A stretch of DNA of 64,000 nucleotides, from NCBI GenBank assembly GCA_964502145.1, contig CAZCVI010000002.1:117383-181382 (forward strand). The letters run 5' to 3'. Positions 31,311-64,000 of this stretch are shown here, piece by piece. The notes beneath the pieces were generated by a model that had not been told where the DNA came from, searched no databases, and saw only the letters and a list, made by a program, of their open reading frames with translations. The DNA comes from an uncultured Clostridia bacterium (GTDB lineage Bacteria > Acidobacteriota > Aminicenantia > UBA2199). Both the position numbers and the translations under genes were made by a program. Within the stretch, counting starts at the first letter, position 1. Each line of letters opens with the position of its first letter.

Positions 31311-31346
31311 TGGACGATATGGACAGTATGGACGATATGGACGATG
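31311..31346 (+). repeat. 9-bp tandem repeat, 4 units (TGGACGATA family)
   Basis: tggacgata tggacagta tggacgata tggacgatg. The same family occurs in inverse orientation at 37776-37811. Confidence 0.9.
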
Positions 31347-31358
31347 GGGATGGTGAAT

Positions 31359-50200: not shown

Positions 50201-53200
50201 GTAGTATCGGTTATATTGAAACCCATGGGACCGGCACCCAGTTGGGGGACACCGTGGAGATAGAGGCATTAAAACTCGTTTTTAACGCCCTCGTCTTGCC
50301 CCAGCATAAAAATACCTGCGCTATCGGGTCAGTCAAAACCAATTTTGGTCACCTGGGCAGTGCCGCCGGGGTGGCTGGATTCATTAAGACCGTATTGACC
50401 TTAAAACACCGCCTCATTCCACCCAGCTTGCACTTTGAACGCCCCAACCCGAAGATTGATTTTGAAAACAGCCCCTTTTACGTCAACACCCAATTAACCC
50501 CGTGGCCCTCCACCCTTCTTCCCGCGCGGGCCAGTGTCAGTTCCTTTGGCATAGGCGGCACCAACGCCCATATTATTTTGGAAGCCGTGGCCCCTACCAG
50601 CCCCGCATTCCCCGCCAGCGCCCGTCCCGATCAATTGCTATTATTATCCGCCCGCACCCCCGCTGCCCTGCACACCATGTCCGTCAATCTGCTGGAGTAT
50701 TTAAAAGAAAACCCGGTGCTTTCCCTGGCCGATGTGGCCTACACCTTGCAAGTGGGCAGAAAGCGTATGGCAATCAGGAGAAAGCTGGTATGTTCCACTT
50801 CCGCCCAGGTGATTGACCAGCTTGCTGCTTCCGGGCCCGCCCATGTCGGCGCTTACACCGCCTTGGTCGCCGATGAAGATAGGAAAGTTATATTTATGTT
50901 CCCTGGTCTTGGTGCGCAGCACGTTAATATGGGGCGCGGGCTTTATCACACCGAACCCATCTTCCGCGATGTGATGGACCGTTGTTTTGCTATATTAAAA
51001 GACCTGTACCCCGTGGACATAAAAGAAATTCTGTACCCTGCCGGGGAAATCTCGCCGGCATCAAACAGCCAATTCCACTCCTTTGAAGTCGAGCAACTCG
51101 TGTTGTTTGTGTTTGAATATGCCTTGGCCAGACTCATTTTGTCGTGGGGCATTCAGCCCCATGCCATGATCGGTTACAGTTTTGGCGAGTATGTGGCCGC
51201 CTGTTTAGCCGGGGTGTTTCGCTTGCAGGATATCTTAAAGTTGCTGGTCGTCCGTGGGCGGCTCATTTCCCAGCTTCCCGCCGGTGCCATGTTAAGTGTT
51301 CCCCTGCCAGTGGAAGCCGTGCAGCCTTTTCTTCCCGCCGAATTATCCATCGCCATAGACAACCGTTCCTCCTGCGTAGTTTCCGGGCCCGCCCAGGCCG
51401 TGGCTTCCTTTGCTCAGCAGATGAAAGCCAAGAAGCTCTTGTGTCCGCCCTTTGAATCCCCCTTTGCCGCGCATTCGTCGCAGTTGGACCCCATATTGGC
51501 GGAGTTTCACAAGGAAGTCGCTACAATTTCCCTCCAGACCCCGCAAATACCCTATATTTCAACCTGTACTGGCACATGGATCACTGTTGCCGACGCGCAG
51601 TCCCCAGAGTATTGGGTCAAACAACTCAGGTCCACCGTTTATTTTGTCCGCGGTATTCATCAGATTATAGAAGGGGTCTCCCCGGTATTTCTAGAAATGG
51701 GCCCCGGACGCGACATGAGTGCCCTGGTGAACCGTGAGATCACCGCTAAAACCGGCATACAGACCATGAACCTCCTCCGTCATCGCGGTTCCTTAAAAGA
51801 GCGCACCGATGAAGATTACTTGCTGGATAAAATCGGTCGCTTATGGTTGTATGGCGTGAATATAGACTGGCAAGCCTATCATTCCGGCCAGAGACGAAGT
51901 CGTCTCTCATTGCCTACCTATCCCTTTGAGAAAAAGCGGGCCTGGAAAATTATGGAAAATTATCACGCCGGTCAATATTCCTATCTACCCGGCGCCCCCG
52001 GTGCGCCAGAGAGTTCGCACCCGGCCCAAGGAACACCTCTGGCAGAAACACCGGGTGATCATTGGACACAAGAGCCCCCCCATCTCGAATGGAATGCTAG
52101 GCCGCAACTTTCCACCTCATATGTCGCTCCCCGCGATGAGGTGCAACAAGTCCTGCTTGATATCTGGCAGCATTTTTTTGGTATTCAAGAGATCGGTATC
52201 ACCGATGATTTTTTTGAATTGGGTGGCGATTCATTAAAAGCCACCACCCTGTTATCCACCCTGCACAAGGAAGCCAATATACTCGTCCCCCTCACTTATT
52301 TCTTCGATAATCCTACCATTGAAAAAATCGCCGCTTATGCCATAACCAGTGAAAATGACGCAGACCCAGGCGAAAAAGAGTTCCATGCCATCCAACTTTT
52401 GGAACAGAAAGAGTATTACCCCCTCTCTTCCGCGCAAAAGCGCATGACCTTTTTTCAGCAGTTGGACCAGACCAGTATCGGATACAACCTGGTGCTGGCA
52501 AACACCATCCAGGGCAATCTGGATACCCTAAAACTGGCCGCCATATTCACCAAACTAAGCGCACGGCACGAGATTTTGCGTACCTCTATTGAAGAGATAC
52601 AGGGTGAAACCGTCCAAAGAATTCATCCACATATTGCTGCCACACTGATCACCGGTCATGGAGAGTCCCCCGAAGTATTTATCGCCCAGTTCATCCGTCC
52701 CTTTGATTTAGCCCGTGCCCCCCTCATGCGGGTCGGGTTGTTGTCTATGGCCGAGCAGCAGTATTTATTAATCGTCGACATGCATCATATCATCTCTGAT
52801 GGCACGTCATTGGCCGTATTGATCGGAGAGTTTTTGGCTCTGTATCAGGAAAAAGAGTTGCCTGTTCTGTTGTTGCAGTATAAAGATTACGCTGTCTGGC
52901 AGAACCAGGAAATGGCCGGTGGGTTGTTTGTTTCGCAGCGGGATTACTGGATAAAGACATTTGCCGGTGAAGTTCCCGTGCTTGAATTGCCTTATGATTG
53001 TATCAGGCCGTTGGATCGCACCTATGCTGGCGATCTGTTGGCCTTTGAAATTGATCGTGCAGAGACTTCGGCGTTAAATCATTTCGCCAGTCAGCAGGGG
53101 GTCACATTGTACATGGTGTTGCTCTGCTTAACCACTATCCTTTTAGCCAAGTTAAGTGGTCAGGAAACCGTGGTCGTAGGAACTCCCATTGCCGGTCGTA

Positions 53201-56200
53201 CCCATGCGGACCTGGGCCGGATTATCGGCATGTTTGTCAATACCCTGGCCATGAAGAATGAACCCAATGGCCAAAAAACTATCCAGGAATTTTTAAAGGA
53301 AGTCAAAGAAAACACCTTGAGTGCTTTTGCCAACCAGAACTACCAGTATGAAGAACTGGTCGAGCACCTGCCCATAGATCGCAGTCTAGGCCATAACCCC
53401 TTGTTTGACACCCTGTTGGTCTTGCAAAACATGGCTCTGCCCAATATCAATATTCCCGAATTGACCTTAACACCCTATCCGTATCATACCGGTTTGGTAA
53501 ATTTTGATTTGACTTTCCTGTGTGTTGAAACCCCAGCTACCCTCTCGTTCACCCTTGAATACAGTACAGAACTCTTTAAAAAAGAAACCGCCCAACGCTT
53601 TATCGGTTTTTTCAAAAAGATATTAACCACCGTATTGGCGCACCCCGAAGGAAAAATATCCCAGATCGAGATAATATCCCAGCCAGAAAAAACCCAGATT
53701 TTATATGATTTCAACAACACCACCGTTACATACCCGGCCAACCAAACCCTTCCCCAATTATTTTCCGACCAAGCCGCACGAACCCCAGACCATATCGCCA
53801 TTATTGGTCCCACCCTGGCTCTAACCCACTGCCAATTAACCTACTCCCAATTAAACGAAGCATCCAATCGCCTCGCCCATTGGTTACTTTCCACTGGCGT
53901 CCGTCCCAATACCATCGTCGCCATCATGATCGAACGTTCCATTGAATTGATCATCGGCATTATCGGCATATTAGAATCCGGTGCCGCCTATCTTCCCATC
54001 GATCCCCAATACCCCGAGGAGCGAAAACAATATATACTAGCAGACAGCAATACAACCCTCATCCTAACCCAACACTCCATCCAACAAGCCATTCCCATCA
54101 CTCCCATCACTCCCAACACTCCCATAATTCCCATACTTCCCATCACTCCCATAAATCTCGCCTATATCATCTACACTTCCGGTTCCACCGGCAGACCCAA
54201 GGGCGTCATGGTAGACCATCACAGCATCGCCAACACCTTGTATTACCGCTGCCAGGAATATCGTATCGTGCCCAGTGATCGTGTACTCCAATTGTTTTCC
54301 TTTGCTTTTGATGGATTTCTCACCTCTTGTTTTACCCCCCTGCTTTCTGGCGCATCTGTCGTGCAGTTAAGCCAGGAGGACATAAAAGATATCTTCCGTA
54401 TCAAAGAGATGATTGTCGCCCAACGAATCACCCACTTTATCGCTGTCCCGTCCCTGTACCGCTCTTTATTGGAAGTCGCCACTGCCCTTGAGTTATCCCA
54501 CCTAAAAATCGTAACCCTTGCCGGTGAGCAGGTGCCCCCCGACCTCGTGGTAAAAAGTAAGTCTTTAAACCCCTTGTTGGAATTGGTCAATGAGTACGGT
54601 CCCACCGAGAGCAGTGTCCTGACCTCCATACACAGAAACCTCGAACCCGGTGCCATTATTTCCATCGGTAAACCCATAGCCAATACCCGGATTTATATTC
54701 TTGATCAAGATGATCATGTTGCCCCCATCGGGTTACCCGGTCAACTCGTTATATCTGGTCTTGGTTTGGCCCGCGGGTATCTCAATAATCCCCAACTCAC
54801 CGCCGCTACATTTTTCTCTTTAGCCCATTCAGCCACCTTCGCCACCCTCTCACCAAAACTCTATAAGAGCGGTGATTTGGCCCGCTGGTTGCCAGATGGA
54901 AACATAGAGTTCCTCGGTCGCATTGATCAGCAGGTTAAAATCCGTGGCTTCCGTATTGAATTGGGCGAGATCGAAAACCAACTGCTTCGCCATCCCCAGA
55001 TCAAAGAGGCAGTAGTGGATGTTAGAACCGAAAACAGCGGCGATCACTATTTATGCGCTTATATTGTCACCCAGGGCGAATGGGACATCTCCCAGGCAAG
55101 AGAATATCTGGCCAAGACCTTACCCGATTACATGATTCCCGCGCATTTTGTCGCCTTGGAGAAAATCCCCTTGTCCCCCACTGGCAAGATTCTACGTTCA
55201 GCCTTACCCCAACCGCAATTAAAAAGCGCGGCCCAGTACGTGCCCCCCCGCAATGACATAGAACAACAATTGGTAGAGATATGGACCGAGATTTTGGGCA
55301 GTGATCCATTGTTTGCCTCTTTTTTACATCCCTCTATAGGCATTGATGATAACTTTTTCCATCTCGGTGGGCACTCCTTAAAAGCCATGACCATGGTCAC
55401 CAAGCTCCATAAAGCCCTAAATGTTAAAGTGCCCTTGGTGGAAGTCTTTAAAACCTTGACCATCAGGAAACTGGCCGCCTATATTTTAGGTTTAAAAAAA
55501 GAGTTATACACCGCCATCCAACCCGCTGAAACCAGAGAGTATTATGACTTATCCTCTGCCCAGCGCCGGTTTTATATCTTGCAGCAAATGGAGCTGGACA
55601 GTTTTGCCTACAACAATTTTTCCGTCATGGTTTTGGACGGATTATTTGATAAAGAGAAATTTGGCCACGCGTTAAACCAATTGATCGCCAGACATGACAG
55701 TTTAAGAACCTCTTTTGAATTAATCGGAGGTGAACCTTTCCAAAAGATACATCAACAAGTAGTCGCGGAAATCGCTTATTTTGATTTCACCCCTCCCGGA
55801 AAAAGTCAGCTCTTAGAATCCACCATCCAACATTTTAACCGTCCTTTTGATTTATCTCATGCCCCCTTGCTCAGGTTCGGCATTATTCTCGTGGAGCAGC
55901 AAAAATCCTTGTTGCTGTTAAGCCTCCACCATATCATCAGTGACGGCACATCCATCGGCACCTTTATGAACGAGTTAATTTATTTATACCTGGGCCGAGA
56001 ACTCCCACCCCTGCGATTGCAATATCACGATTTCTCCCAGTGGCAAAAAAACCTCCTGGTTTCCGGGGCATTAAAGACCCAGGAAGAATACTGGTTAAAA
56101 GTTTTTGCCGGGGAACTGCCCGTTCTTGAAATGCCCACCGATTACCCCAGACCAGCCGTGCAAAGTTTTGCCGGTCACAGTATCGATTTCTTTCTGGAGG

Positions 56201-56889
56201 AAGATGTCGCCCGGCAGTTGGAAACCCTGGTGAAAGAAACTGGCACCACGTTATATATTTTGTTATTGGCCCTGTACAGTATCTTGTTAAGCAAATTTAC
56301 CGGGCAGAAAGACATCATCATCGGCTCTCCTATTGCCGGGCGCAACCACGCTGATTTAGAAGGGCTGATCGGGTTATTCATTGAGACCATCGTGATCCGC
56401 TGTTTTCCCCTCGGAGATAAACCCTTTTTGGAATTCTTGGCAGAGGTGAAAAGCAATACCTTTAATGCCTATGAGAACCAGGGTTATCCCTTCGGGGAAT
56501 TATTAAAGCACGTGGGCACCCAGCAGTGGGATGGCAGTCGGAACCCCTTGTTTGATGCCATGTTAATTGTTCAGAATGTCACCCAGGATTTTAAAGTGAT
56601 GTTATTGGAAGATGTAAAGATCAGCCCTTATGTGGCCAGTGACCACCGGGTCTCTAAAATGGATATTACCCTGGAGGTCATCGAAGCCCCCGGCAGAATT
56701 CATTGTAACCTGGAATACTGTACCGCGCTATTCACACACGAGACCATGGCAGCCTTTATCGCTTCTTTTCAGAAAATCGTGGCCATTGTTTTAGAAAATA
56801 ATAACATAAGATTGCAAGACATCCAATTGTCCCATGAATTAAAAGGTGCCACCGCCTCTATTTACGATGACGCCGAAATAGAGTTTTAA
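38071..56889 (+). CDS. Hybrid NRPS-PKS megasynthase, 6272 aa: C-A-T / C-A(rSAM-B12 insertion)-T / C-A-T / KS-AT-T / C-A-T / C
   Basis: There are five HHxxxDG condensation motifs: HHIIYDGWS, then HHIISDG four times. Four A domains carry the motifs LKAG(A/G)AY(L/V)P(I/L)(N/D)P, (Y/S)TSG(T/S)TG(K/R)PK, (Y/N/H/E)YGP(T/S)E, Y(R/K)(T/S)GD and GK(V/I)(D/L)R. Five carrier Ser motifs are present (GGHSL x3, GGNSM, GGDSL). KS motifs are TACSTSLVA, ETHGTGTQLGD and NFGHLGSAAG. The AT motif is GYSFGEYVAA. Confidence 0.95.
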   Translation: MSQLERKKIADILMLTHLQEGILFHYLQEPKSAQYFEQLSLEISGEINLELFKTAWHTVIQTNEMLRTVFRWEKMEKPTQIILKEHTCDITFYDLTDEATNRQKSRLQEIKDKDKQTPFDLQEVPMRIMLCKLGTHDYEMIISNHHIIYDGWSNGIILKEFFRAYYGLSAGKPALLPDKPSFKEFIKWLQNEDKYEKDKQKAFWRDYLAGLDGQTELPLKNIKNRKNTGSKQVEHYSLVLEPELKERLEAFAKTKRFTLAGVFYTVWGLLLHQYCNSQDVLFGTTVAGRSARIKGIEEMVGLFINTIPLRIQTTPGEKMVAVVSGVDHALQARELFENTPLLDIRNYSGLSGYVSLFDTLVVIENYPLDSRLLPEESGLSVHAFTIAEMTHYDLTVGIVLFNEIAVTFSYNPELFAQEMIAHLAGHFLSLVQMIIENGEQDICAIEIISPEEKHRVLYEFNNTAAEYPSNKTIPQLFMEQSARTPDYIALIWEKSGACHISYAELNELSNRLAYWLQTEGIRPDTIVAIMVNRSIEMIVGLMGILKAGAAYLPINPEYPAERIQFMLQDSTAKIVLTEPIIQATTSHIPIPPIIPIIPIPPITPSNLAYVIYTSGTTGKPKGVLVEHQNAVNVVCWLGRKYQLNPDTHIILMSDYTFDASIDQIFGALLHGASLYIASKEFMLDMDALRHYINKNRINFINFVPLVLNELLGYREKLPSLNTVISGAERLDDTIKDNILKRGYHLYNHYGPTETTVETLVFTCTDAPVYLGKPIANTKIYILDQWEHIVPIGVPGELYIAGAGLARGYLNRSDLTAEKFVATPHGVENDPVSRTYRTGDLGCWLPDGNIAFLGRIDQQVKIRGFRVELGEIEAQLRTFPEIKQVVVSAKEDNRGDKTLCAYIVSRQLSTGPTAPLDPAVLTTYLAGILPDYMIPAYYVQLAEIPLLPNGKVDRKNLPEPVFIATQAYQEPRHELDRRLQTIWTSVLFGNVLSEDSSAPPPKPIGIDDNFFHMGGHSLKIMNMAAKIHKELNLEIPVQELFTHPTIRVLANYINTREHTKNITKNNFAEIAAIEVKEYYPLSSAQKRVYILYLMETDSINYNMHEVFRLEGELDVGRLEKSFTQLIRRHESLRTSFFLLHDEPVQKIVAASDVPFASEFFDPNEKDTLVEPALNDTALMENTTVYDINQRFLRPFDLTQAPLFRVGLIKIAKNSHILMAGMHHIISDGISIDLFITDFVALYRGQNLPPLPIQYKEYAHWQHQKKAQGAFNSQRSYWLHEFAGELPVLTMPYDFPRPAVQSFAGDKYYFNLPAYETKTLIKRCQEEAVTLFMMLSAIYYVMLWKLSGAEEIVVGSPTAGRRHADLESILGMFVNTLAVKTSPAKETRFKPFLAQVKQKNLAAFENQEYQFDDLVEELLPARDLGRNPLFDMMFILQNMTGTTNTAINIPGLKITRLPFETHIAPFDFYLMAEERQESIYFTVGYCTKLFTLETVRRFMGYYREILATVVTQPEVELARIDILSPAEKRQLVQEFNNTQRPYPQGQTIPQWFAEQAARTPEAIAVVGEGVITYRELNQRANQLAHLLRQKGVAPDTIVALFMFRSIQMVVGILGILKAGGAYLPINPVYPGQRVLSILEDSGGNYFISDEKTSRPLSFTGLQRLDVPEVTPLVTAKRPQITNFDSLPHPDRTLIDYSKYHRYIGIAPAKYTVSIQATRGCPYQCAYCHKIWPKTHVMRRAEDIFAEISACYQAGVKRFVFIDDVFNLNKKNSGQLFQTLIDHHYDVQLFFPNGLRGDILTPDFIDLMIEAGTVNIDLALETASPRLQKLINKQLNLEKFAANVHYITQKHPHVVLEMEMMIGFPTETEAEALQTLELLQSFKWVHFPNLNILKIYPNTDMAQLAIENGVSRKLIHSSTTLAFHELPETLPFSKDFVREYQARFTNQYFLSQERLRHVLKQQVKSFTADELVQKYDSYLPVEIKSFADILKCADISSAALGPIEFIPEARFAAPDFNQRIKAFFPSRPSSENAFRLLFLDLSQSFRADMGHTLYDVGAEPLGLMYLASYLQEQLGPHVRVKVLKSRIDFDSYAQLQEQITLFQPHLIGLRTLSLYKDFFHRTVSLLRQWGITAPIIAGGPYATSDYKQMLQDPHIHLAVLGEGEATTLHLVKEMMTKNNTWPADDVLETIPGLAFIRQSERMLTTAPQRQVLLLDQISGPLAHFPTTNPQNVNHPGDLLYLISTSGSTGKPKSVMVEHRTLVNLLHFQFHHTAIHFSRVLQFAAIGFDVSVQEIFSALLAGGTLYLPDEDMKSDVPRLFQFIQQNQIEILFLPPAFLNFVFSDPDYIPLFPDCVRHIIAAGEQLIVNEALRLFLKQRHVYLHNHYGPSETHVVTTLTMDPTQEIPHFPGIGSPVSNTGIYILDSQSNLLPLGVSGELNIGGIQVGRGYLGNVALTAEKFVPNPFVPGDRLYRTGDMARWWSNGSIQFLGRLDFQIKIRGFRIEPGEIEGQLKKHPDIKETIVLALADNKGELYLVAYVVLQPQTTMPLLREFLLNRLPDYMVPAHFIPLARIPLNASGKVDRHALPPPENTPGNGHVAPRDPMEKKLAAIWCTVLGKDVAQDTVSIDDNFFQMGGHSLKATALTSRLAKEFHVKVPLVEIFKEPTIRGLSGYIAHSMVEQYAGITPVEEQEYYPLSSAQKRLHFLQQMDKAGTTYHLTSNWLLEGVVAKNHLEQSLLKLLQRHESLRTSFDIIAEEPVQIIHPKLAFVIEDEHATMDSFLRPFALSHAPLLRVGLVKIAAEKFLLLVDMHHIISDGLSMDILSREFTALLAGVELPPLRLQYKDYAAWQSSEKESPHFRQQELFWQQEFSGAIPVLDLPVDYSRPPVQSFAGASLPFALSRDSVVSLQAIAVEASATMYMVLLTCYTIFLAKMSNQEDIVIGTPIAGRRHADLEKIIGMFVNTLVLRNYPVAEKKFSDFLAEVKERTLKAFENQEYPYEDLVDKVTITRDVCRNPLFDTMFVLQNATPPPVDIPGLKIAPVPQENKTAKFDLTLTAVETPEKIELNFEYCTKLFKKESIHRFITYFTNIIDSVLADPFIVLGQIPLLSPAQREQLLVEINAPAIRYPNFKTIQGLFAEQVKKTPDRPALTGIRYDQAETHLTYRQLDQLSRQLAHQLTGRGLGPNKRAAIMVGRNVEMIIAILGIIQAGAAYVPLDPQAPVERLHYVLADCGAELLLTFRPLAARLAPAIDTLYLEEFTTLPATPPDAVLSGHPDDLAYIIYTSGSTGRPKGVPICHRNVSPLLFWGYRYLGICRLDRVIQSPSYYFDWSVWEIFITLTSGAHLVMISEELVLDPPALVEFIRQHAITTLHITPTQLSYLVNSRRPMLSLHHLCIGAEKLTYDLVARALPLLATDCRIYNMYGPTEATIISAVAEIDREQIPFYLKLPSIPIGHTIANTTLFVLDHSMNPCPIHVVGELYIAGDALARGYLNDPEKTVASFVTNPFAEICGPYLYKTGDRVRRLEDGSILFLGRADDQVKIRGYRIELGEIENWLLHYPHVKDALVLVKADHLQEKYLCAYVACPIELDTAELRDFLAARLPAYMIPAHFITLEHMPLNPNGKVDKKRLPLPEMQTSPQVVAPKNDLEKTILSIWQDVLGLDHVGTTDNYFERGGNSMNIVKVSHRLKSVLNRDIPVMDLFRYPTIKTLAAYLNQSPGHVPFTPSEIGESLLLNQPEIPRHESVSTTPAIAVIGMAGRLPGANTISAFWNNLKHGVESIAFFSPAEFADNGGDPRSVNLPNYVKTRCDLQDIQYFDSSFFGYTPVEAEIIDPQMRLFHECVWEAFEDAGYESGSYAGRIGLYSGGESSSFWETLTSLSQIGQLMNPLILGNLNNKDYLSSRIAYKFNLRGPSVTMNTACSTSLVAIHFAVQGLLNRECEIALAGGVRVMLPGKTGYLYQEGMIQSPDGHCRAFDARANGTVGGDGVGVVVLKTLARAQVDGDHIYAVIKGSAINNDGIGKVGYHAPSINGQAAAIRAACANAAIDPGSIGYIETHGTGTQLGDTVEIEALKLVFNALVLPQHKNTCAIGSVKTNFGHLGSAAGVAGFIKTVLTLKHRLIPPSLHFERPNPKIDFENSPFYVNTQLTPWPSTLLPARASVSSFGIGGTNAHIILEAVAPTSPAFPASARPDQLLLLSARTPAALHTMSVNLLEYLKENPVLSLADVAYTLQVGRKRMAIRRKLVCSTSAQVIDQLAASGPAHVGAYTALVADEDRKVIFMFPGLGAQHVNMGRGLYHTEPIFRDVMDRCFAILKDLYPVDIKEILYPAGEISPASNSQFHSFEVEQLVLFVFEYALARLILSWGIQPHAMIGYSFGEYVAACLAGVFRLQDILKLLVVRGRLISQLPAGAMLSVPLPVEAVQPFLPAELSIAIDNRSSCVVSGPAQAVASFAQQMKAKKLLCPPFESPFAAHSSQLDPILAEFHKEVATISLQTPQIPYISTCTGTWITVADAQSPEYWVKQLRSTVYFVRGIHQIIEGVSPVFLEMGPGRDMSALVNREITAKTGIQTMNLLRHRGSLKERTDEDYLLDKIGRLWLYGVNIDWQAYHSGQRRSRLSLPTYPFEKKRAWKIMENYHAGQYSYLPGAPGAPESSHPAQGTPLAETPGDHWTQEPPHLEWNARPQLSTSYVAPRDEVQQVLLDIWQHFFGIQEIGITDDFFELGGDSLKATTLLSTLHKEANILVPLTYFFDNPTIEKIAAYAITSENDADPGEKEFHAIQLLEQKEYYPLSSAQKRMTFFQQLDQTSIGYNLVLANTIQGNLDTLKLAAIFTKLSARHEILRTSIEEIQGETVQRIHPHIAATLITGHGESPEVFIAQFIRPFDLARAPLMRVGLLSMAEQQYLLIVDMHHIISDGTSLAVLIGEFLALYQEKELPVLLLQYKDYAVWQNQEMAGGLFVSQRDYWIKTFAGEVPVLELPYDCIRPLDRTYAGDLLAFEIDRAETSALNHFASQQGVTLYMVLLCLTTILLAKLSGQETVVVGTPIAGRTHADLGRIIGMFVNTLAMKNEPNGQKTIQEFLKEVKENTLSAFANQNYQYEELVEHLPIDRSLGHNPLFDTLLVLQNMALPNINIPELTLTPYPYHTGLVNFDLTFLCVETPATLSFTLEYSTELFKKETAQRFIGFFKKILTTVLAHPEGKISQIEIISQPEKTQILYDFNNTTVTYPANQTLPQLFSDQAARTPDHIAIIGPTLALTHCQLTYSQLNEASNRLAHWLLSTGVRPNTIVAIMIERSIELIIGIIGILESGAAYLPIDPQYPEERKQYILADSNTTLILTQHSIQQAIPITPITPNTPIIPILPITPINLAYIIYTSGSTGRPKGVMVDHHSIANTLYYRCQEYRIVPSDRVLQLFSFAFDGFLTSCFTPLLSGASVVQLSQEDIKDIFRIKEMIVAQRITHFIAVPSLYRSLLEVATALELSHLKIVTLAGEQVPPDLVVKSKSLNPLLELVNEYGPTESSVLTSIHRNLEPGAIISIGKPIANTRIYILDQDDHVAPIGLPGQLVISGLGLARGYLNNPQLTAATFFSLAHSATFATLSPKLYKSGDLARWLPDGNIEFLGRIDQQVKIRGFRIELGEIENQLLRHPQIKEAVVDVRTENSGDHYLCAYIVTQGEWDISQAREYLAKTLPDYMIPAHFVALEKIPLSPTGKILRSALPQPQLKSAAQYVPPRNDIEQQLVEIWTEILGSDPLFASFLHPSIGIDDNFFHLGGHSLKAMTMVTKLHKALNVKVPLVEVFKTLTIRKLAAYILGLKKELYTAIQPAETREYYDLSSAQRRFYILQQMELDSFAYNNFSVMVLDGLFDKEKFGHALNQLIARHDSLRTSFELIGGEPFQKIHQQVVAEIAYFDFTPPGKSQLLESTIQHFNRPFDLSHAPLLRFGIILVEQQKSLLLLSLHHIISDGTSIGTFMNELIYLYLGRELPPLRLQYHDFSQWQKNLLVSGALKTQEEYWLKVFAGELPVLEMPTDYPRPAVQSFAGHSIDFFLEEDVARQLETLVKETGTTLYILLLALYSILLSKFTGQKDIIIGSPIAGRNHADLEGLIGLFIETIVIRCFPLGDKPFLEFLAEVKSNTFNAYENQGYPFGELLKHVGTQQWDGSRNPLFDAMLIVQNVTQDFKVMLLEDVKISPYVASDHRVSKMDITLEVIEAPGRIHCNLEYCTALFTHETMAAFIASFQKIVAIVLENNNIRLQDIQLSHELKGATASIYDDAEIEF
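39832..39885 (+). repeat. In-frame 9-bp tandem repeat (6 units) encoding IPIPPIIPIIPIPPITPS in the A2-A3 loop of A domain 1
   Basis: attcccatt cctcccata attcccata attcccatt cctcccata actcccagt. It lies immediately before NLAYVIYTSGTTGKPKG. Confidence 0.95.
41290..46090 (+). other. Module 2: C (HHIISDG ~41731) - interrupted A (N-part 42630-43020; C-part 44755-45830) - T (Ser 45970-45972)
   Basis: A2 motif LKAGGAYLPINP at 42910-42945. A3 motif LYLISTSGSTGKPK at ~44779-44817. Later motifs NHYGPSE, GELNIGG..GRGY, YRTGD, KIRGFRIEPGEIE and NASGKVDR are intact. The hand-extracted code DVQFIAHVVK matches the Pro code DVQLIAHVVK at 9 of 10 positions. Confidence 0.8.
43021..44754 (+). other. ~580-aa insertion inside A domain 2: radical SAM core followed by a B12-binding-like Rossmann domain (permuted order)
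   Basis: FDSLPHPDRTLIDYSKY...IQATRGCPYQCAYCHK (Cys at 43222, 43234, 43243), FVFIDDVFNL, NIDLALETASPRLQKLINK and MIGFPTETEAE. From ~44161 onward: FRLLFLDLSQ...EPLGLMYLASYLQEQ...PHLIGLRTLS...APIIAGGPYATSD...LAVLGEGEATTLHLV (B12-binding-domain-like). Confidence 0.75.
46130..49210 (+). other. Module 3: C (HHIISDGLS ~46489) - A (A3 ~47890-47940) - T (GGNSM, Ser 49090-49092)
   Basis: Motifs as listed. The hand-extracted code D-W-W-H-C-G-M-I-I-K is unassigned. Confidence 0.8.
49300..52340 (+). other. Module 4 (PKS): KS (Cys 49816-49818) - AT (GYSFGE ~51175) - PCP-like carrier (FFELGGDSLKAT, Ser 52231-52233); no KR/DH/ER/MT
   Basis: IAVIGMAGRLPGA...TACSTSLVA...ETHGTGT...NFGHLGSAAG. VIFMFPGLGAQ...GYSFGEYVAACLAG. 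Post-AT linker PTYPFEKKRAW. The carrier is preceded by YVAPRDEVQQVLLDIWQ, which is NRPS-style. Confidence 0.8.
52400..55480 (+). other. Module 5: C (HHIISDGTS ~52786) - A (A3 ~54160-54210) - T (Ser 55375-55377)
   Basis: The hand-extracted code DGTITAEVLK matches the Tyr code DGTITAEVAK at 9 of 10 positions. Confidence 0.75.
54091..54153 (+). repeat. In-frame 9-bp tandem repeat (7 units) encoding IPITPITPNTPIIPILPITPI in the A2-A3 loop of A domain 4
   Basis: attcccatc actcccatc actcccaac actcccata attcccata cttcccatc actcccata. It lies immediately before NLAYIIYTSGSTGRPKG. Confidence 0.95.
55530..56886 (+). other. C-terminal condensation domain (HHIISDGTS ~55927) with no following A/T in the same protein
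   Basis: EYYDLSSAQRRFYIL...LHHIISDGTS... The ORF ends 3 nt before the next megasynthase gene. Confidence 0.8.
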
Positions 56890-56891
56890 CA

Positions 56892-59800
56892 ATGTCTAAA
56901 GGAAAAGAAACCATGAGAAAACAAACCAATGCCCCCTCCAAACTAGCTTTTGTTTTTCCCGGAATTGGTTCTTTATGGAAACAAATGGGCCTTCGCTTAT
57001 TACAAGAAGACGTTTTTCGCACGACGATCCAGGAATGCGATGAGGCCTTTCGTTTGAATCCCTCAGTCGCTTGGTCAATTGTAGAAGAGATCAACGCCCC
57101 GGTAGCGCTTTCAAGAATCGAAGATATCTGTATCGGTTATCCCTGCGGCTTGGCTATTGAGATAGCCTTAACCGCCTTATTAAAAAGCCGTGGTATCCTC
57201 CCCCATGCTGTAATCGGTCACAGTGGTGGCGAAATTCCCGCGGCTTATGCCGCAGGCATTCTGAATTTACCCGATGCCTTTCGCGCTATCTGGGGTCACT
57301 ATATGGAAATGAGCAAAAGAAACAACGCGGTCAACATGGCCTATATCGGCTTGCCCGTAACCAAAGTGGCGCAAACCATACAACTCCACCACGCCCAATC
57401 CCGCATATTCATCGCCGCTGTAAACAGTCCTAAATCCACCATCATCTCCGGTCACACAGACGCCATTAAACCCCTGCTGGAATCTCTCGCCAAAGAAAAA
57501 GTATTTTGCCGCATCTTGGACACCCTGGGCGCGTTTCATTCTCCGATCATGGAAGAGAATAGAACGGAAATTTATACCCGCTTAAAAGACATCCAAGCCA
57601 AAGAAGCCACCATCCCCTTTTACTCCTCCCTGTTAGGCAAATTGGGACACGATAATCTTGCGCTACCCTTGTACTGCACCAATCTGATGATACAACCCGT
57701 GTTGTTTGCCGATGGCATTCAAGCCCTGATTAAAGATGGCTATACCACCTTTTTAGAGATCAGCCCCCATCCCGTTCTTTCCAGAAATATCCAGGAAATA
57801 CTCGAAGCATGCAACCTAGAGAACGCACAGGTTCTGCCAACCTTAAAACGCGATGAGGACGACAAAAGAATGTTCGCAGAATGTCTCGACCATCTTGCCA
57901 CAGCCCACCCCGCATCACACACTTTCTTTTCGTCCCCGCCACCCACCATTGACCCCGCCCAAAAGAAAGCCTTTATCGTAACAACAATCACCCAATCCAT
58001 CCAGGACCTTTTAAAATGCCCCCCTGTTTCCCCTGTGGATGTCTACCTCGGTTTTTTTGATATGGGCTTTGATAGCATGAAAGCATTACAATTTAAAGAT
58101 ATATTATCCCAACGACTCGGTTTATCTCTCCCCGTGACCTTGATCTTTGATTATCCTGATATTCATTCCCTGAGCCACTATTTACTCTCCAGATTTACCC
58201 TATCAACCCCTGCCACAGAGGACAATAACCCGCTCCTTGAAACCAGTACAGAACCCATCGCCATCGTTGGCATGGCGTGTCGTTTTCCTGGTGGTGCCAA
58301 TACCCTCGATACCTTCTGGGACCTATTAAAAAACGGGCGGGATACCGTAAGCGATATCCCCGAGGAGCGTTGGAATGGTCAGATGTATTATTCTCCAGAG
58401 ATCACACCCGGAAAAACCAACACCCACCGGGGAAATTTTATTTCTGGTATTGATATCACCACCTTTGACGCCAATTTTTTCAAGATTTCACCCAAGGAAG
58501 CCAGAGCATTGGACCCCCAGCATCGGCTTCTTTTAGAAGTAACTGTTGAAGCTTTGGAAAATGCCGCCATTCCGCTGTTAAGTATCAGAGATAAACAAGT
58601 CGGCGTGTTTATCGGCATATGTTCCGATGATTATAAATTAGCCCACCTCCATGCCGCCGATTTAACCCACATGGATGCATACGCCGCCTCTGGTTCCATG
58701 CTTGGACCCGCCGCGGGCAGGATATCTTATTTCCTTGGGCTCAGAGGACCATCCCTGTCCGTTGATACCGCGTGCTCTTCTGCCCTGACCGCCCTTCATT
58801 ATGCAGTGTTATCGCTCCGCCACCGTGAATGTGAGACCGTCATCACCGGTGGCGTAAACTGTTTGTTATCCCCTAATATGTTCGTGTATTTGAGCCAGCT
58901 CAATACCTTGTCCCAAGATGGGACATGTAAAACCTTTGATGAAAAAGCCGATGGTTTTGGTAGGGGAGAAGGGTGTGGCGTTTTAGTATTAAAGCGCTTG
59001 TCCGATGCCCGGCGCGACAACGATAATATCTGGGCCATTATCCAGGGTTCCGCCGTGAACCACGATGGCGCCAGTGCCGGTTTCACCGCTCCCAATGGCG
59101 TCGCCCAGCAAGAAGTGATCCAAAAAGCCCTGTTAGATGCCCGTGTTTCCCCTGCCAGTGTCGATTATATTGAAACCCATGGAGCAGGCACGCCACTGGG
59201 CGACCCCATCGAAATACAAGCTATAGCGGAAGTATACGGTAAAAATCGGGCCCAAGATGTGCCCCTTCTCGTGGGCGCTGTAAAAACAAATATCGGACAC
59301 TTGGAAGCTGCCGCTGGCGTAGCTGGAATGATCAAAACCATCCTCTCCTTACATCACCACATCATCCCCCCTCACCTCCATGTCTCCCACCCCAACCCCC
59401 AGATCAACTGGGAACAGATCCCGGTAAAAATAAATACCGGTTTAACCCCCTGGTTCCCCCGTGAGCAACCCAGGCGTGCCGCCATCAGCGGTTTTGGCTT
59501 CAGCGGAACCAATGCCCACGTGATTATTCAAGAACCACCCCTTTGGGCAGATGAAACCAACACCACATCAGACCCATATCCCGTTCATATGTTGAATTTA
59601 TCCGCCAAAACCCCCCGTGCCTTAAACGAATTGGCCCGGTTATACACGGACTATCTTTCCAATCCATCTTTGCCTGATTTAGGCGATATATGTTATACTG
59701 CTGCCACCGGTCGTTCTCATTTTTCTTTTAGATATTCCGCCGTGGGCAAAGATGTTTCTGAAATCAAGCATAAGCTCGAATACTTCCTGGCCAATCAAAC

Positions 59801-62800
59801 CAATCATTCCACTGTCACCCAAGATAAAAACGAGCTGAATAAAAAAATCGCTTTCCTTTTCACCGGGCAGGGGTCGCAGTATGTTGGCATGGGCAAAGAG
59901 TTATACCATGCCGAACCCATATTTAAAGCCGCCTTAACCACCTGCGACCAACTCTTCCAAAAAGTACTGGACCTATCCATCATCGAATTATTGTATGCCC
60001 CCCTATCTACCGATGAGATCGTCGCCCAAGCCATTCATGCCCAACCCATTATTTTTGCCATCCAATATGCCCTGGTCAAACTCTGGCAATCCTGGGGCAT
60101 AGAACCCGCCCTGGTTATCGGACACAGCATCGGCGAATATGCCGCCGCGTGTACCGCTGGCGTTTTTAGCTTGGAAGATGCCGTCAAACTCGTGGCCATC
60201 CGGGGTCGATTAATGCAATCCGTCAGCCAATCCGGGCGCATGGCCGGTATTCTAACCTCCGAGGAAAACGCCCGCGCCTTTATCGCCCCCTATCAAAACG
60301 ACGTGTCCATCGCTGCTGTTAATGCCCCTGAAAATGTCACCATCTCCGGTAGCCTAGAATCCATAAACAACGTGTTGGCCCATGTTAAACAGGCAAAAAT
60401 TTTTATCGAACAACTTCCTATTTCCCATGCCTTTCATTCCGTGCTCATGGAACCCTATGTAGAGTCATTCAGTCGCGAAATCGCTGGAATTGTGTTCTCC
60501 CCCCCACAATTACCTTTCATTTCAACCGTTACCGGTTTACCCGCCCACCAAGAAATAACCCAGCCCCAGTATTGGGCGCAGCATTTTTGCCGTACCGTGC
60601 GCTATTATGACAGTATCACCTTGGCTCACACCCAGGGCGTCCAAATTTTTCTCGAAATCGGCGGCACTGCCACCCTAACAGGGCTCGCCGCCCAGTGTTT
60701 GCCCGCCACAAATGCCCTTTTTATTCCTTCCTTGCGAAAAGGAAAGTCTGCCTGCCAACAACTATTAACCAGTCTCTCCCAATTGTATACCCACGGCATA
60801 AATATCCAGTGGCAAAAATTTTATCACCCCTTTCAGTATAAAAAAGTAATCCTTCCCAACACCCCTTTTTTGCGTGAAAGGTTCTGGATGGATAACCTTC
60901 TTCCAGTCTTACCCACCCAGAAAAATGAATTAGTACAACCTATACCAGAGGAAATCGTGATCGAGGACACTAATAATATGGAAAATACAGCACACATTCT
61001 TATTGAAATAAAAGAGATGGTTCATACTATTTCCGGTTTGCGCCCCGAAGCGCTTGATGATGATTCCGAATTGTTTGCCATGGGACTCGATTCATTGATG
61101 ATGACCGAGTTACGGCGCAAAATAACCGGCCAGTATGGCATAGATATTTCTCTGAATGAATTTTTCATGGAATTAACCACCCTGCACAAAATAGCCCGAC
61201 ATCTCCAGCATAAGTTCCACCCCCTGGCAAAGAAAACGGCAGTCACCCCCCAGTTTATAGATACAATGACTATTCCAGCCCCGCAGGCAGGTGAAACCAT
61301 GCCTGTTTCCACCATGGAACGTATCCTGACGCAACAAATGGAGGCCATGAAAGAGCACTCTTTACGGATCTCCGATTTAGCGTTAAAACAATTGGAAGCC
61401 CTAAAGAATCTGCAGGTTCCCGTTCCTCCAGTTCCCCCCGTGGTCGCTCCTACTGTTGTAGCCGAACCTATCACCAAACCCCTTCACTTTTCCGCTACCG
61501 CCGATCTGCGCCAGCGCGGTTTGACCCTGCGGCAGCAGGAGCACTTGGATAGACTTATACAGCGTTATACCGCGCGCACCCATTCCTCCAAAGAACAGAC
61601 CCGCCACGACCGCGACGTCCTCGCCGATAGTAAAGGGACAGTCGGGTTTAATCTTGCCACCAAGGAAATGTTGTACCCCCTCATTGGCAAGTCTGCCAAA
61701 GGCTCCCGTATCTGGGATATTGATGGTAATGAATACGTCGACATCACCATGGGCTTTGGCGTCTATCTGTTTGGTCATCATCCCGAATTTCTCAAGAAAG
61801 CCTTCCGTGAACATCACGAAGATGCACCCGAATTAGGCCCCCGTTCCCCCTGGGTGGGCAAGGCCGCTGCTTTAATTGCGCAATTCACCCGTTTGGAACG
61901 TGTCGCTTTTGCCAATACCGGCACTGAAGCTGTCATGACCGCTATTCGTCTCGCCCGTGCCGCGACCGGACGCACCAAAATCGCCATGTTTTCCCGTTCT
62001 TACCACGGCCATTCCGATGGCACCCTGGCTGTCTCCACCATACGTAACGGTCAACTTTTTTCCGAACCCGTTTCACCCGGAATTCCCCATAGTGTTGTCC
62101 AGGAAACGATTGTTTTGGATTACCTCGAACCCCACGCCCTGGAGATTATCCGCCAACAGGGGCCCCAACTGGCTGCCGTGCTGGTTGAACCCGTGCAAAG
62201 CCGGTATCCCGATGTCAACCCCGCCCCATTTCTCCACGAATTAAGACGTATCACCCGGGAAACAGGTTGCCTGTTGATATTTGATGAAATGATTACCGGG
62301 TTCCGTATTCATCCTGGTGGCGCCCAGGCGTATTTTAATGTTGAGGCCGATATCTGTGTCTATGGAAAAATTATCGGTGGCGGTTTACCTATCGGTGTCA
62401 TTGCCGGGAAAGCCCACTATATGGATCACATCGACGGCGGTACCTGGGACTATGGCGATACCTCGTACCCTGCCGTGGAAAGAACCTTTTTCGGCGGCAC
62501 ATTCTGCCAGTACCACCAGGCCATGTTGGCCGCTACTACGGTTTTAGAATACCTCCAAGACCAGGGCCCCCAATTGCAACACCAATTGAATCTCAAAACA
62601 AAACAATTGGCCGATACACTCAATACTTATTTTGAAGAAAACAATATCACCATCCGTGTGCTTTATTTTGGTTCCATTTTCCGTTTCGAAATCCAGGGTG
62701 GTCTCGATTTATTTTACTTTCATATGTTGGAAAAAGGCGTGTACATCTGGGAGTGGCGTAATTGTTTCCTTTCTACCGCCCATACCCAGGAAGACCTGGA

Positions 62801-64000
62801 TCATATTTTTCGCGCCGTCAAAGAGACCGTGACCGAACTGGAACAAGGCGGTTTTTCCCTCCATAGCGGGCACTCCGCCACCTCCCAATCACATTCCGGG
62901 GACTACTATCCCATGTCCTCCGTGCAAAAACGATTGTTTGTGTTGAGTCAATCCCAGGAAGGGGACCGCGCCTACCATGTGCCTATTGCCGTGCAAATCG
63001 AGGGCCCAGTAAATATTGAAAAATTCCAGGCCATTTTCAAAGAGTTATTCCTGCGCCACGAGATATTTCGTACTGGCTTGGAAATAAAAGAGGAGCAGTG
63101 GGTGCAACATGTTTATCCAGTCGATGAAGTGGCATTTTCTATCCGTCATGTTAACATTAAAGAAACCGATATCAATACATTATTGGCAGAGCTGTTACGT
63201 CCCTTTGATCTATCCAAGCCCCCATTGTTACGTGCCACCATGGGTGAAATTTCTCCCACTCGCTTCGTATTCATTTTAAATTTCCATCACACCGTGATCG
63301 ATGGCGCTTCATTTACCCTCTTTATGCAAGACTTTTTCAATCTTTATAACCACCATCCGCTTCCCCCCGTCAAGATGCAGTATAAAGAATACACCCAGTG
63401 GGAACAACAGTACCTAAAGTCACCCGATTTTAAAGCCCAGGAGGAATATTGGTTGCACCAATTGGGCGGTGAACTCCCCCTGCTGGAATTACCCACCGAT
63501 TTTCCCAGGCCGCCCATTTTAGACTTTGAAGGCGATGTCTTCCGCTTTAAAATCCAGATTGATAAAGTCGACAGGGTGAAAGCACTGGCCAAAAAAACGG
63601 GTTCCAGTTTGAACATGCTGCTACTGGCTATATATAATGTACTCCTCTTTAAATTGACCCAGCAAGAAGACATGCTCGTGGGCATCCCCGCCAGTGTCAT
63701 CTGGAATGAGCAATTCGAGCGCACCGTCGGCATGTGTACCAATACCCTCGTCATCCGCAATTGTCCCGCCGGGAATAAACCCTTCACCCGCTTTTTAAAA
63801 GAAGTGAAAACCAATTGTTTACAAGCCTACTCCCACCAGGAATACCCCTATGAAGAATTGGTCAGTAAATTCCCAGGCAAACGAGATATTAGTCACAACC
63901 CGTTTGTGGATGTGATGTTTGTCTATGAAAACGGTAACAGTCGCTTATATGATCTGGCTGATCTGACCGTTACCCCCCGTGATATCAACGTGGGCGCCTC
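56892..64000 (+). CDS. Hybrid PKS-NRPS megasynthase, N-terminal >=2369 aa (3' end outside window): AT-ACP-KS-AT-ACP-aminotransferase-C...
   Basis: It is not in the supplied ORF track because no stop codon falls in the window. My manual translation from the ATG at 56892 is open to nt 64000 (the ATG at 56913 is an alternative start). The translation begins [33 protein letters not shown]... Confidence 0.9.
   Translation, partial: [2369 protein letters not shown]
56930..58200 (+). other. Loading-type AT (GHSGGE, Ser 57222-57224; GAFHS) - ACP (GFDSM, Ser 58074-58076)
   Basis: [11 protein letters not shown]...[17 protein letters not shown]...LGAFHSPIM, followed by [16 protein letters not shown]. 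Confidence 0.8.
58250..61200 (+). other. KS (DTACSSAL, Cys 58773-58775) - AT (GHSIGEY, Ser 60126-60128; HAFHS = malonyl-type) - ACP (GLDSL, Ser 61092-61094)
   Basis: [15 protein letters not shown]...[10 protein letters not shown]...[11 protein letters not shown]...[21 protein letters not shown]...[10 protein letters not shown]...[20 protein letters not shown]. Confidence 0.85.
61500..62830 (+). other. PLP-dependent class-III aminotransferase domain (GSA-aminomutase-like; Lys 62367-62369)
   Basis: [26 protein letters not shown]...[18 protein letters not shown]...[11 protein letters not shown]...[14 protein letters not shown]. It is the same domain type as in MycA/ItuA/McyE beta-amino-forming modules. 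Confidence 0.8.
62900..64000 (+). other. Condensation domain (HHTVIDGAS ~63285), truncated by window end
   Basis: [14 protein letters not shown]...[11 protein letters not shown]... Confidence 0.8.

Follow-up and report, generated by a model that had tools for sequence, protein, structure and literature searches.

The window, a stretch of 64,000 nucleotides, ends within a hybrid polyketide/peptide synthetase gene whose encoded part reads AT-ACP-KS-AT-ACP-AMT-C. All of these domains are present in this order with their catalytic residues intact. Their composition supports a β-amino-forming unit in which an AT-ACP loader takes the place of the fatty-acyl ligase of MycA and ItuA. It is highly probable that the unit carries out a self-primed, MycA-like synthesis of a β-amino acid. 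This core chemistry is common to two readings of the role of the subunit: it may start the whole product, or it may act in line as a convergent module. The two roles are about as likely as each other.

The gene directly follows the gene of a 6272-residue protein. The TAA of the latter occupies 56887–56889, and the ATG at 56892 lies 3 nt downstream. From this ATG to the window end, the frame contains no stop in 2369 codons, against 109 stops in each remaining forward frame. With stops at about 4.6% of codons, the chance of such a stop-free run is about e^-110, and the window-end open frame is a real hybrid polyketide/peptide synthetase gene. Translation could start at 56892 or at an in-frame ATG at 56913, which has an AGGA-like stretch ahead of it and would bring the N terminus nearer to the length seen in relatives. 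The absence of the gene from the ORF track has a technical and not a biological reason: the ORF runs off the window. A sequence-only reading of the window had described the same open frame, beginning 3 nt past the stop of the 6272-residue gene, and the same series of domains. Pfam gives the identical order, and all 12 motifs quoted in that reading are in place in the translation (Table 1).

Table 1. Coordinates of the two adjacent synthetase genes and of their domains, counted from the first letter of the window; residue numbers refer to the respective protein
Feature	Position	Residues	Strand	Domain order or motifs (residue)	Basis
6272-aa NRPS/PKS gene, same operon	38071..56889		+	C-A-T-C-A[rSAM/B12]-T-C-A-T-KS-AT-ACP-C-A-T-C	
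Terminal LCL-type C of the 6272-aa protein, with tail and stop	55534..56889	5822-6252 (C)	+	HHIISDG; tail ...SIYDDAEIEF	Core motifs C1-C7
Second megasynthase gene, 5' part (2369 codons)	56892..64000		+		Frame open to window end
AT_L, N-terminal loading acyltransferase	56937..57881	16-330	+	GHSGGE (109)	Pfam PF00698; DEBS AT alignment; 7-member family alignment
ACP1	57963..58199	358-436	+	Phosphopantetheine Ser in GFDSM (392)	Pfam PP-binding and motif
KS	58251..59384	454-831	+	Cys in DTACSS (DTACSSAL, 625); His in HGAGT (763); His in NIGH (NIGHLE, 800)	Pfam ketoacyl-synt plus C-terminal part
AT2	59853..60803	988-1304	+	GQGSQ; QP; GHSIGE (1077); Arg117; HAFHS (1179)	Pfam Acyl_transf_1; alignment
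ACP2	61008..61205	1373-1438	+	GLDSL (1398)	Pfam PP-binding and motif
AMT, class-III (GSAM-like)	61563..62858	1558-1989	+	TGTEAV (1676); FDEMITGFR (1797); PLP Lys in YGKIIGGG (1824)	Pfam PF00202; MycA AMT match
C after AMT, cut by window end	62901..64000	2004 on	+	HHTVIDG (2132)	Pfam Condensation, aa 2004-2347

Motif reading and alignments agree on intact catalytic residues in the KS, AT2, ACP2 and C domains. Judged from these residues, the KS is condensation-competent and not a KSQ, and AT2 is of the canonical malonyl-CoA type. ACP2 is predicted to carry the β-keto and then the β-amino thioester. Within residues 1–2369, Pfam finds no AMP-binding domain and no match to a methyltransferase domain.

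The N-terminal AT_L-ACP1 pair displays the features of a loading didomain. It stands directly ahead of a KS with an active-site Cys, and its AT keeps the Ser and His residues and has lost the carboxylate-binding Arg. In an alignment of seven family members, the three residues that contact the malonyl carboxylate are replaced in AT_L, namely Q11 by I, Q63 by Y and R117 by H (FabD numbering). Both the retention of Ser and His (GHSGGE...FHS) and the loss of the contacts are conserved in six to seven of the seven members. The family as a whole is marked by GHSGGE, a hydrophobic residue for Q11, Tyr or Phe for Q63, and Trp-x-His at the Arg117 position; in addition, GIGS replaces GQGSQ in AT_L. The closest solved relatives include the loading AT of avermectin AVES1 (4RL1; E = 1.4e-40) and DEBS ATs. 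An AT without malonyl-carboxylate contacts fits the predicted role of AT_L-ACP1 as the loader of a non-carboxylated acyl starter.

Every family member seen has AT_L at its N terminus. No fusion of a C domain to AT_L appeared in an exhaustive HMMER search with AT_L-ACP1, the list of which is dominated by giant multi-AT PKSs through summed scores; in the relatives closest by identity, the didomain is always N-terminal. In L094, L095, L101, and L115, more distant AT-ACP didomains of the GHSGGE type begin ordinary PKS lines and have nothing ahead of them. The earlier proposal that the N-terminal AT-ACP is the true loading module is supported in part: the pair looks like a loader, whereas initiation of the whole cluster is about as likely as an in-line role. 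It had further been proposed that the cluster makes a peptide-polyketide with a short-chain-primed β-amino acid. The β-amino-forming unit, with its AMT and catalytic residues, is retained from that proposal, and the short chain is replaced by a starter that would be non-carboxylated.

The segment at 61.5–62.8 kb is assigned by HMM to the class-III aminotransferases (Pfam Aminotran_3, PF00202; residues 1597–1955, E = 9e-50). The best solved relative of the AMT is the MycA AMT (6KFM/6KFU), with 503 bits and E = 4.5e-150, against about 196 bits for GSAM enzymes. Over 432 residues, the domain is 53% identical to the sequence of the MycA AMT crystal structure, and the PLP lysine of YGKIIGGG is kept. 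The MycA AMT has been characterised experimentally, with Gln as the amino donor (Aron et al. 2005, as cited in a passage of PMC3870968). A stand-alone glutamate-1-semialdehyde aminomutase was considered and rejected: the domain scores 255.8 bits with TIGR00713 (hemL), below the equivalog cut-off of 527.3, and is embedded in a protein of at least 2369 residues. In a tree of C domains, those that follow an AMT, including that of the window, form their own clade. The KS-AT-ACP-AMT-C unit recognised in the sequence-only reading is borne out by these matches.

From this domain content we infer the following reactions. AT_L would charge ACP1 with a non-carboxylated acyl group taken from a thioester of CoA (or of an ACP). 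The KS would condense this group with malonyl-ACP2, loaded by AT2, yielding β-ketoacyl-S-ACP2, and the PLP-dependent AMT would convert the β-keto group into a β-amine. The C domain after the AMT would then join the carbonyl of the β-aminoacyl group to the amino acid of an A-T pair beyond the window. Such a pair is expected because the relatives continue as C-A-T-C.

These relatives are 56–61% identical to the protein, and those on which the predicted A-T rests are 3350–4690 residues long. Relatives of 3350–3550 residues read AT-T-KS-AT-T-AMT-C-A-T-C, extending past the point where the window cuts the gene; the relatives end in this extra C and a short tail. The family numbers about 20; all members come from uncultured bacteria, and some are labelled Acidobacteriota or Aminicenantes.

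β-Amino acids made by KS-AT-ACP-AMT units are a hallmark of iturins, microcystins, and many cyanobacterial lipopeptides. MycA and ItuA, from the mycosubtilin and iturin lines of Bacillus, share with the present protein the KS-AT-ACP-AMT-C order, the malonyl extender AT, the C directly after the AMT, and a loader and carrier pair ahead of the KS. An A-T follows in MycA and ItuA and is predicted here from the relatives. However, the MycA/ItuA loader is an ATP-dependent fatty-acyl-AMP ligase with an ACP, whereas the AT-ACP found here would draw on a thioester donor. MycA and ItuA end in a T, unlike the present relatives with their C and tail. A further difference is the orphan C at the end of the gene that precedes the present one. 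In MycA/ItuA-type lines, a terminal thioesterase uses the β-amine for macrolactam closure; the end of the present line lies outside the window, and none of the related loci fetched showed a thioesterase. The present protein also differs in coming from an uncultured lineage, and its best match is 61% identical.

McyE, NdaF, and the puwainaphycin, laxaphycin, nostophycin, and floridanemamide lines likewise place a class-III AMT after KS-AT-ACP and turn a β-keto group into a β-amine at the PKS-to-NRPS transition. These lines extend a chain from upstream PKS modules or one started by an A+KR, aromatic CoA-ligase, or fatty-acyl-ligase loader, whereas here a single AT-ACP loader is followed by one extension. 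McyE carries a C-methyltransferase, while the present unit lacks CM, KR, and monooxygenase domains. McyE is the looser comparison, as both the C-methyltransferase and an upstream PKS chain are lacking here. The loading AT-ACPs of DEBS and AVES1 resemble AT_L-ACP1 in their N-terminal position before a Cys-KS, the kept Ser-His, and the lost carboxylate-binding Arg. They feed a reducing PKS line, in contrast to the single-extension, AMT-containing hybrid module found here, and the motif set of the AT_L family (GHSGGE and the changes at Q11, Q63, and Arg117) is distinctive.

The role of the subunit depends on how it relates to the preceding 6272-residue protein. The terminal C of this protein has no acceptor carrier of its own, and its best PDB match is the TycC PCP-C (2JGP; 377 bits). 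An epimerisation domain was rejected for this position, as all C core motifs are present, neither EGHGRE nor FNYLG is found, and the best match is the TycC C. The domain is either a candidate partner of the β-amine or, possibly, the last domain of the line. The first C of the same protein resembles the subunit-entry C domains of TycB1 (288 bits) and SrfA-C (272 bits), and therefore the protein does not appear to be a starter itself. A lipo-initiation C-starter is not supported for this first C, which scores only about 40 bits to CDA-C1 and RzmA-Cs against the 288 to TycB1.

A T-C with a Y-x6-[FI]EF tail directly precedes an AT_L-first gene in nine loci, the window and eight others (L081–L086, L090, and L172), a count that overstates the evidence, given that a C domain ends the majority of proteins in these lines and that the loci lack independence. 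The upstream proteins differ in kind and include NRPS, KS-AT-KR-T-C, and cC-A-T-C proteins. Two sister loci, L082 on the 100.7-kb contig ERZ25073488 NODE_25 and L170 on the 58-kb ENA contig ERZ27291558 k141_132611, encode proteins that are split between C and A throughout. They contain two docking classes: a T with a basic tail is followed by a KS, and a C with an acidic/aromatic tail is followed by an acceptor module. The protein upstream of the AT-first one begins with a plain A-T in both loci. Downstream of the AT-first protein in L170, five junctions in a row are colinear, and acidic/aromatic tails always stand ahead of an acceptor-bearing protein.

That the subunit encoded from 56892 starts the whole product has, in our estimate, nearly an even chance. 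The β-amine would then stay free up to a late step such as ring closure or release, and the 6272-residue protein would act at a later stage, its first C being of a type that accepts a chain from a different subunit. The invariably N-terminal AT_L, the lack of a C-AT_L fusion in the search, and the AT-ACP didomains that start PKS lines argue for this role, as does L089, where the cluster opens with an AMT-containing member. Characterised KS-AT-ACP-AMT-C units all put the β-amino acid at the chain start, according to the passages on them in two papers (PMC13252402; PMC3870968). However, a starter role requires a permuted gene order, both in the window and in most relatives. The terminal C of the 6272-residue protein must then release or cyclise the product or hand it on to a protein encoded elsewhere. 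The elongation type of this C, its conserved tail without an acceptor, the junction recurring in eight further loci, the colinear junctions of L170, and the acidic/aromatic tails that always precede an acceptor-bearing protein there all count against a starter, as does the absence of a thioesterase from the related loci fetched. The orphan C and the recurring junction suggest instead that the subunit acts in line, which is a serious possibility, if short of an even chance. The AT_L-ACP1-KS-AT2-ACP2-AMT block would replace an A-T pair, giving a line with two chain starts and a PKS-made β-amino acid in mid-peptide. The orphan C would acylate the new β-amine on ACP2, so that the upstream peptide becomes N-linked, and the C of the subunit would pass the chain on; the acyl starter would form the side chain of the mid-chain β-amino acid. 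The genuine elongation-type C without an acceptor, the 3-nt gap, the junction shared by upstream proteins of whatever type, and the organisation of L082 and L170 favour this arrangement. In addition, at other points of these lines, KS-AT-(KR)-T-C proteins that carry the same tail pass the chain to cC-A-T proteins. Both AMT-less variants lack a terminal C upstream: in L087 no NRPS gene precedes the variant, and the upstream protein in L091 ends in T.

Against an in-line role, literature searches gave no precedent for an in-line C that N-acylates an AMT-generated amine; searches for the AT-ACP-KS-AT-ACP-AMT-C architecture also returned nothing relevant. The L089 member, as first gene, is likewise at odds with such a role, the C domains ahead of AT_L-first proteins do not form one clade, and cyclisation onto the β-amine by the upstream C would also predict that an AMT goes with such a C. 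Moreover, the first C of the 6272-residue protein needs a donor, and none is encoded upstream of it; the upstream KS in L086 is of the NRPS-fed type. The gene order is therefore not fully colinear under either reading. A decarboxylating loader (KSQ) was rejected for that L086 KS, in which Cys-His-His is intact and the active-site region resembles that of the NRPS-fed KS of the 6272-residue protein. Both roles considered so far take AT_L-ACP1 as the primer of the following KS. It is improbable that the pair instead loads a nucleophile-bearing acceptor for the upstream C, or supplies a branch while the KS is fed elsewhere. The unusual AT_L, with GHSGGE, GIGS, and His for Arg117, would be in keeping with such a function, and the AMT-less member of L091 follows a protein whose terminal T could feed a KS directly. 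Nevertheless, an AT-ACP at the N terminus, immediately followed by a Cys-KS, is the classical loading arrangement, shared with the solved AVES1 and DEBS relatives, and didomains of the AT_L type start plain PKS lines. We know of no AT that loads an amine-bearing acyl group in cis. Least probable is a decaying or silent remnant that makes no product. Such decay is suggested by the relative in L084, from a 9.13-Mb Candidatus Aminicenantes genome, which ends early inside its C domain and sits among unrelated genes, and the 3' end of the present gene lies beyond the window. On the other hand, the gene has 2369 open codons with every catalytic motif intact and is tightly coupled to the intact 6272-residue gene.

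In every case described, the β-amino acid starts the chain, and either an adenylating loader or PKS modules upstream provide the priming. Three loading strategies have been listed, which use A+KR, an aromatic CoA-ligase, or a fatty-acyl-ligase (PMC13252402). The dedicated AT-ACP loader of this undescribed family of about 20 would represent a fourth. The unit may also provide a compact cassette with exchangeable parts for β-amino acids, the side chain being set by the acyl-CoA. If the subunit acts in line, small β-amino acids could be placed at any position of a nonribosomal peptide with no need for an A domain, which would be useful for engineering, and genome mining should not take a protein-end C followed by AT-ACP as a cluster boundary.

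AMT-C didomains are widespread, occurring in at least 600 loci of the genome collection. Among 185,579 species representatives, the best match to the AMT-C segment over the whole query is 48% identical (L001), and the top best-segment match reaches 60% (L040).

The forward-strand frame that opens with the ATG at position 56892 runs through 2369 codons to the end of the window and contains no stop; the other two forward frames over 56892–64000 contain 109 stops each. The ATG is located 3 nt past the TAA of the gene at 38071–56889 (+ strand), which encodes a 6272-aa NRPS/PKS protein. The mechanical ORF list lacks this frame solely because ORFs running off the source go unlisted. An alternative in-frame ATG at 56913 stands behind an AGGA-like stretch, AAAGGAAAAG. 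A start at this position would yield the N-terminus MRKQTNAPSKLAFVFPG and a length nearer to that of the relatives (MxxxKIKTAFVFPG). The product is a second megasynthase, whose N-terminal acyltransferase is designated AT_L. The sequence-only reading had described this uninterrupted frame and derived by eye the order AT-ACP-KS-AT-ACP-aminotransferase-C. Pfam returns the same order, and all 12 motifs quoted in that reading are found where it placed them. The 61.5–62.8 kb segment, on whose identity the reading had been staked beforehand, is assigned by HMMs to aminotransferase class III.

Features of the window; residue numbers refer to the AT_L gene product unless another protein is named
Feature	Position	Strand	Remarks
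AT (AT_L)	aa 16–330	+	Pfam
ACP (ACP1)	aa 358–436	+	Pfam
KS	aa 454–831	+	Pfam
AT (AT2)	aa 988–1304	+	Pfam
ACP (ACP2)	aa 1373–1438	+	Pfam
Aminotran_3 (AMT)	aa 1597–1955	+	Pfam, E = 9e-50
Condensation (C), cut by window end	aa 2004–2347	+	Pfam
Radical-SAM and B12-binding insert	43084–44760 (aa 1672–2230 of the 6272-aa protein)	+	N-terminal part of second A domain
Radical-SAM (614 aa) and wHTH-YcaO (754 aa) pair	12079–16215	+	YcaO: PF02624, E = 2e-91
1758-aa signalling protein	17061–22337	+	Ser/Thr kinase, AAA_16, GAF, SpoIIE/PP2C phosphatase domains
AbiEii-like toxin fragment	22605–23099	-	
rSAM/SPASM protein	27814–29202		
SDR	29345–30148		
APS kinase	30562–31173		
Methyltransferase	31359–32006		

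By a wide margin, AMT has its best solved relative in the corresponding domain of mycosubtilin synthase subunit A (MycA; 6KFM, 6KFU), with 503 bits, E = 4.5e-150 and 53% identity over 432 residues. The PLP-lysine motif YGKIIGGG is kept between the two domains. Free-standing glutamate-1-semialdehyde aminomutases reach about 196 bits at most, and the hemL model scores far under its cut-off. According to PMC3870968, which cites Aron et al. 2005, the MycA domain aminates an ACP-bound β-keto thioester with glutamine as donor. The KS retains its Cys, His and His residues. AT2 is of the textbook malonyl-CoA type (GQGSQ, QP, GHSIGE, Arg117, HAFHS). The C domain after AMT carries HHTVIDG, and the post-AMT C domains of related proteins group as a clean clade in a C-domain tree. 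The similarity of AMT to MycA and the retained catalytic residues bear out the earlier proposal that KS-AT-ACP-AMT-C constitutes a MycA-type β-amino-forming unit. Domain content, domain order and catalytic residues are direct observations, and homology points to the chemical steps: the protein would in all likelihood prime itself, form a β-aminoacyl thioester in the manner of MycA and hand it to a C-A-T module.

AT_L retains the catalytic Ser and His (GHSGGE...FHS). In malonyl-specific transfer, the malonyl carboxylate is held by three residues, Q11, Q63 and Arg117. Among seven aligned members of the AT_L family, Q11 is replaced by Ile, Phe or Leu and Q63 by Tyr, Phe or Gly; Arg117 is His in six members and Ile in the L086 protein. 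These losses were checked by alignment with a DEBS AT and by FabD numbering. Judged from sequence, a pattern of this kind predicts a loading AT that takes a non-carboxylated acyl group. The earlier proposal of an N-terminal loading AT-ACP and a "short-chain-primed" β-amino acid is thus supported for the loader, whose carboxylate contacts are lost, but not for "short-chain", since the signature does not give chain length.

The AT_L unit would function like MycA and ItuA, with which it shares KS, AT, ACP, AMT and C features, but their defining fatty-acyl-AMP-ligase loader is missing and AT-ACP is present instead. The functional likeness to McyE is looser; the AT_L unit has neither a CM domain nor the chain from upstream PKS modules that McyE receives. 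AMT-C didomains are widespread: a scan of 185,579 species representatives, among which the source genome is not included, gave at least 600 loci in many phyla. A fatty-acyl ligase and carrier, or other PKS/NRPS modules, usually stand before them. A 2026 survey of β-amino polyketide residues in cyanobacteria lists priming by A+KR on alpha-keto acids, by an aromatic-acid CoA ligase and by a fatty-acyl ligase; AT-ACP priming is not among these three strategies (PMC13252402). Literature string searches for the AT-ACP-primed architecture found no description. What is new is best filed as a β-amino-forming hybrid module with an AT-ACP loader and a recurrent orphan-C junction; its family is uncharacterised and comes from uncultured bacteria.

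The closest relatives of the AT_L gene product in a search of 5.8 billion proteins share 56–61% identity. They originate from metagenomes and MAGs, some labelled Acidobacteriota; one is in CP070627.1, a genome of 9.13 Mb with proteins labelled Candidatus Aminicenantes. Full-length members (3350–4690 aa) are composed of AT-T-KS-AT-T-AMT-C-A-T-C, some with one further A-T-C, and end in a C domain and a short tail with no thioesterase. On the pattern of these relatives, the AT_L gene very probably continues beyond the window as C-A-T-C. Two natural variants, L087 (protein P0078) and L091, read AT_L-T-KS-AT-T-C...; the aminotransferase is gone and the ACP-to-C linker is kept. In locus L085, the relative (1447–7578) stops right after AMT, and the next protein (7667–16756) opens with a second T-AMT, followed by C-A-T-C-A-T-C. 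Either tandem duplication or an artefact of assembly would account for the repeat.

The 6272-aa protein is sequentially composed of C-A-T-C-A[rSAM/B12]-T-C-A-T-KS-AT-ACP-C-A-T-C. It ends in a genuine condensation domain, which contains SSAQRRFY, RHDSLRTSF, HHIISDG, NQGYPF and SRNPLFD, has neither of the epimerase motifs EGHGRE and FNYLG, and among solved structures is closest to the TycC PCP-C didomain (377 bits). No acceptor carrier of its own accompanies this terminal C, whose tail, ...SIYDDAEIEF, comes to within 3 nt of the AT_L gene. The first C matches the C domains that serve subunit entry in TycB1 (288 bits) and SrfA-C (272 bits), and scores about 40 bits to C-starter domains. A domain of this type needs a donor, and none is encoded upstream, where the genes encode a HEAT-repeat protein, an S46 peptidase and others on the opposite strand. 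The internal AT (50884–51786, + strand) has GYSFGE for GHSxGE and AAHS for HAFH/YASH, with Arg117 kept.

A junction of T-C and a Y-x6-[FI]EF tail with a gene whose product begins with AT_L is also present in eight other loci (L081–L086, L090 and L172). Counting the window (56848–56886), this form of tail stands ahead of each AT_L-first gene with an upstream neighbour, nine of nine. The protein on the 5' side varies, being an NRPS, a KS-AT-KR-T-C module or cC-A-T-C. Sampling is best for the cluster of L082 and its sister L170, where the splits between proteins fall after C domains throughout and a plain A-T opens the first protein in view. Downstream of the AT_L-first protein come five junctions, which are colinear and form two docking classes, with tails of both classes at protein C-termini of L170 and L081–L091. 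Class 1 joins T and a basic tail (for example ...KRMQKKRELNNA and ...RFQRRKGVNNG) to a KS-first protein. Class 2, to which the tail ahead of the AT_L gene belongs, joins C and an acidic/aromatic tail (...Y-x6-FEF, ...FDF, ...EYDFI) to A-T or cC-A-T. In related clusters, proteins following one that ends in a full C domain begin with a C remnant consisting of the C-terminal lobe only (L081 5593–9717 and 20643–24851, L083 15090 onward, L170 23612–26302). The remnant covers C-profile positions ~196–455, lacks HHxxxDG and is placed before the A domain, like a vestigial platform from splitting of the line after C.

We tentatively prefer a placement in which the AT_L subunit initiates the whole line and the 6272-aa protein acts later, with its terminal C releasing the chain, cyclising it or passing it on. 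The recurrent orphan-C junction and the class-2 tail suggest a rival, only slightly less probable, in which assembly is in-line or convergent and the orphan C takes the β-amine on ACP2 as acceptor. The AT_L-ACP-KS-AT-ACP-AMT block would then replace an A-T pair and insert a PKS-made β-amino acid mid-line. A genuine terminal C without its own acceptor carrier, 3 nt from the AT_L gene, fits this rival, as do the eight further junctions despite differing upstream proteins and a tail of the class that precedes acceptor modules in colinear L082/L170. The nine-locus count overstates the independent evidence, because it draws on related loci and most proteins of these lines have a final C. In-line assembly is also consistent with the AMT-less variants, L087 having no NRPS gene upstream and L091 being preceded by a protein ending in T, not C, but both fit just as well with the C cyclising onto the β-amine.

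Other observations argue against the in-line placement. In L089 the cluster begins with the gene for an AMT-containing member, and only 318–526 nt of non-coding DNA is visible upstream of the L088 and L173 members, with housekeeping genes after L088. AT_L is N-terminal in every member, and a search for a C-AT_L fusion found none. More distant GHSGGE-type AT-ACP didomains stand at the head of ordinary PKS lines, and the β-amino acid sits at the chain start in all characterised precedents. The C domains ahead of AT_L-first proteins do not form a single clade in the C-domain tree. The donorless first C of the 6272-aa protein likewise speaks against in-line assembly; together with the upstream KS of L086, which appears to be NRPS-fed, it indicates that neither model has a fully colinear gene order. 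Initiation by AT_L remains only our tentative preference, and other readings share the small probability left by these two.

The radical-SAM/B12 insert of the 6272-aa protein sits between A-profile positions ~120 and ~126 and carries its CPYQCAYC cluster at aa 1718–1725. The radical-SAM core precedes the B12 part, the reverse of the order in class-B methylases. DscE, a stand-alone B12-rSAM C-methylase of a nonribosomal pathway, was reported in 2025 (PMC12858407); literature searches turned up no NRPS A domain with an rSAM inserted in it. Stand-alone B12-rSAM genes adjoin NRPS genes in the relatives L082 and L001.

The radical-SAM/YcaO pair is followed by a 165-aa ORF with no Pfam match, and the whole stretch (12079–16820, + strand) may be a separate RiPP-type locus, for a thioamide or azoline. 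The four genes of 27814–32006 are located between the NRPS operon and housekeeping genes, and are possible candidates for tailoring (sulfation, methylation) in the cluster.
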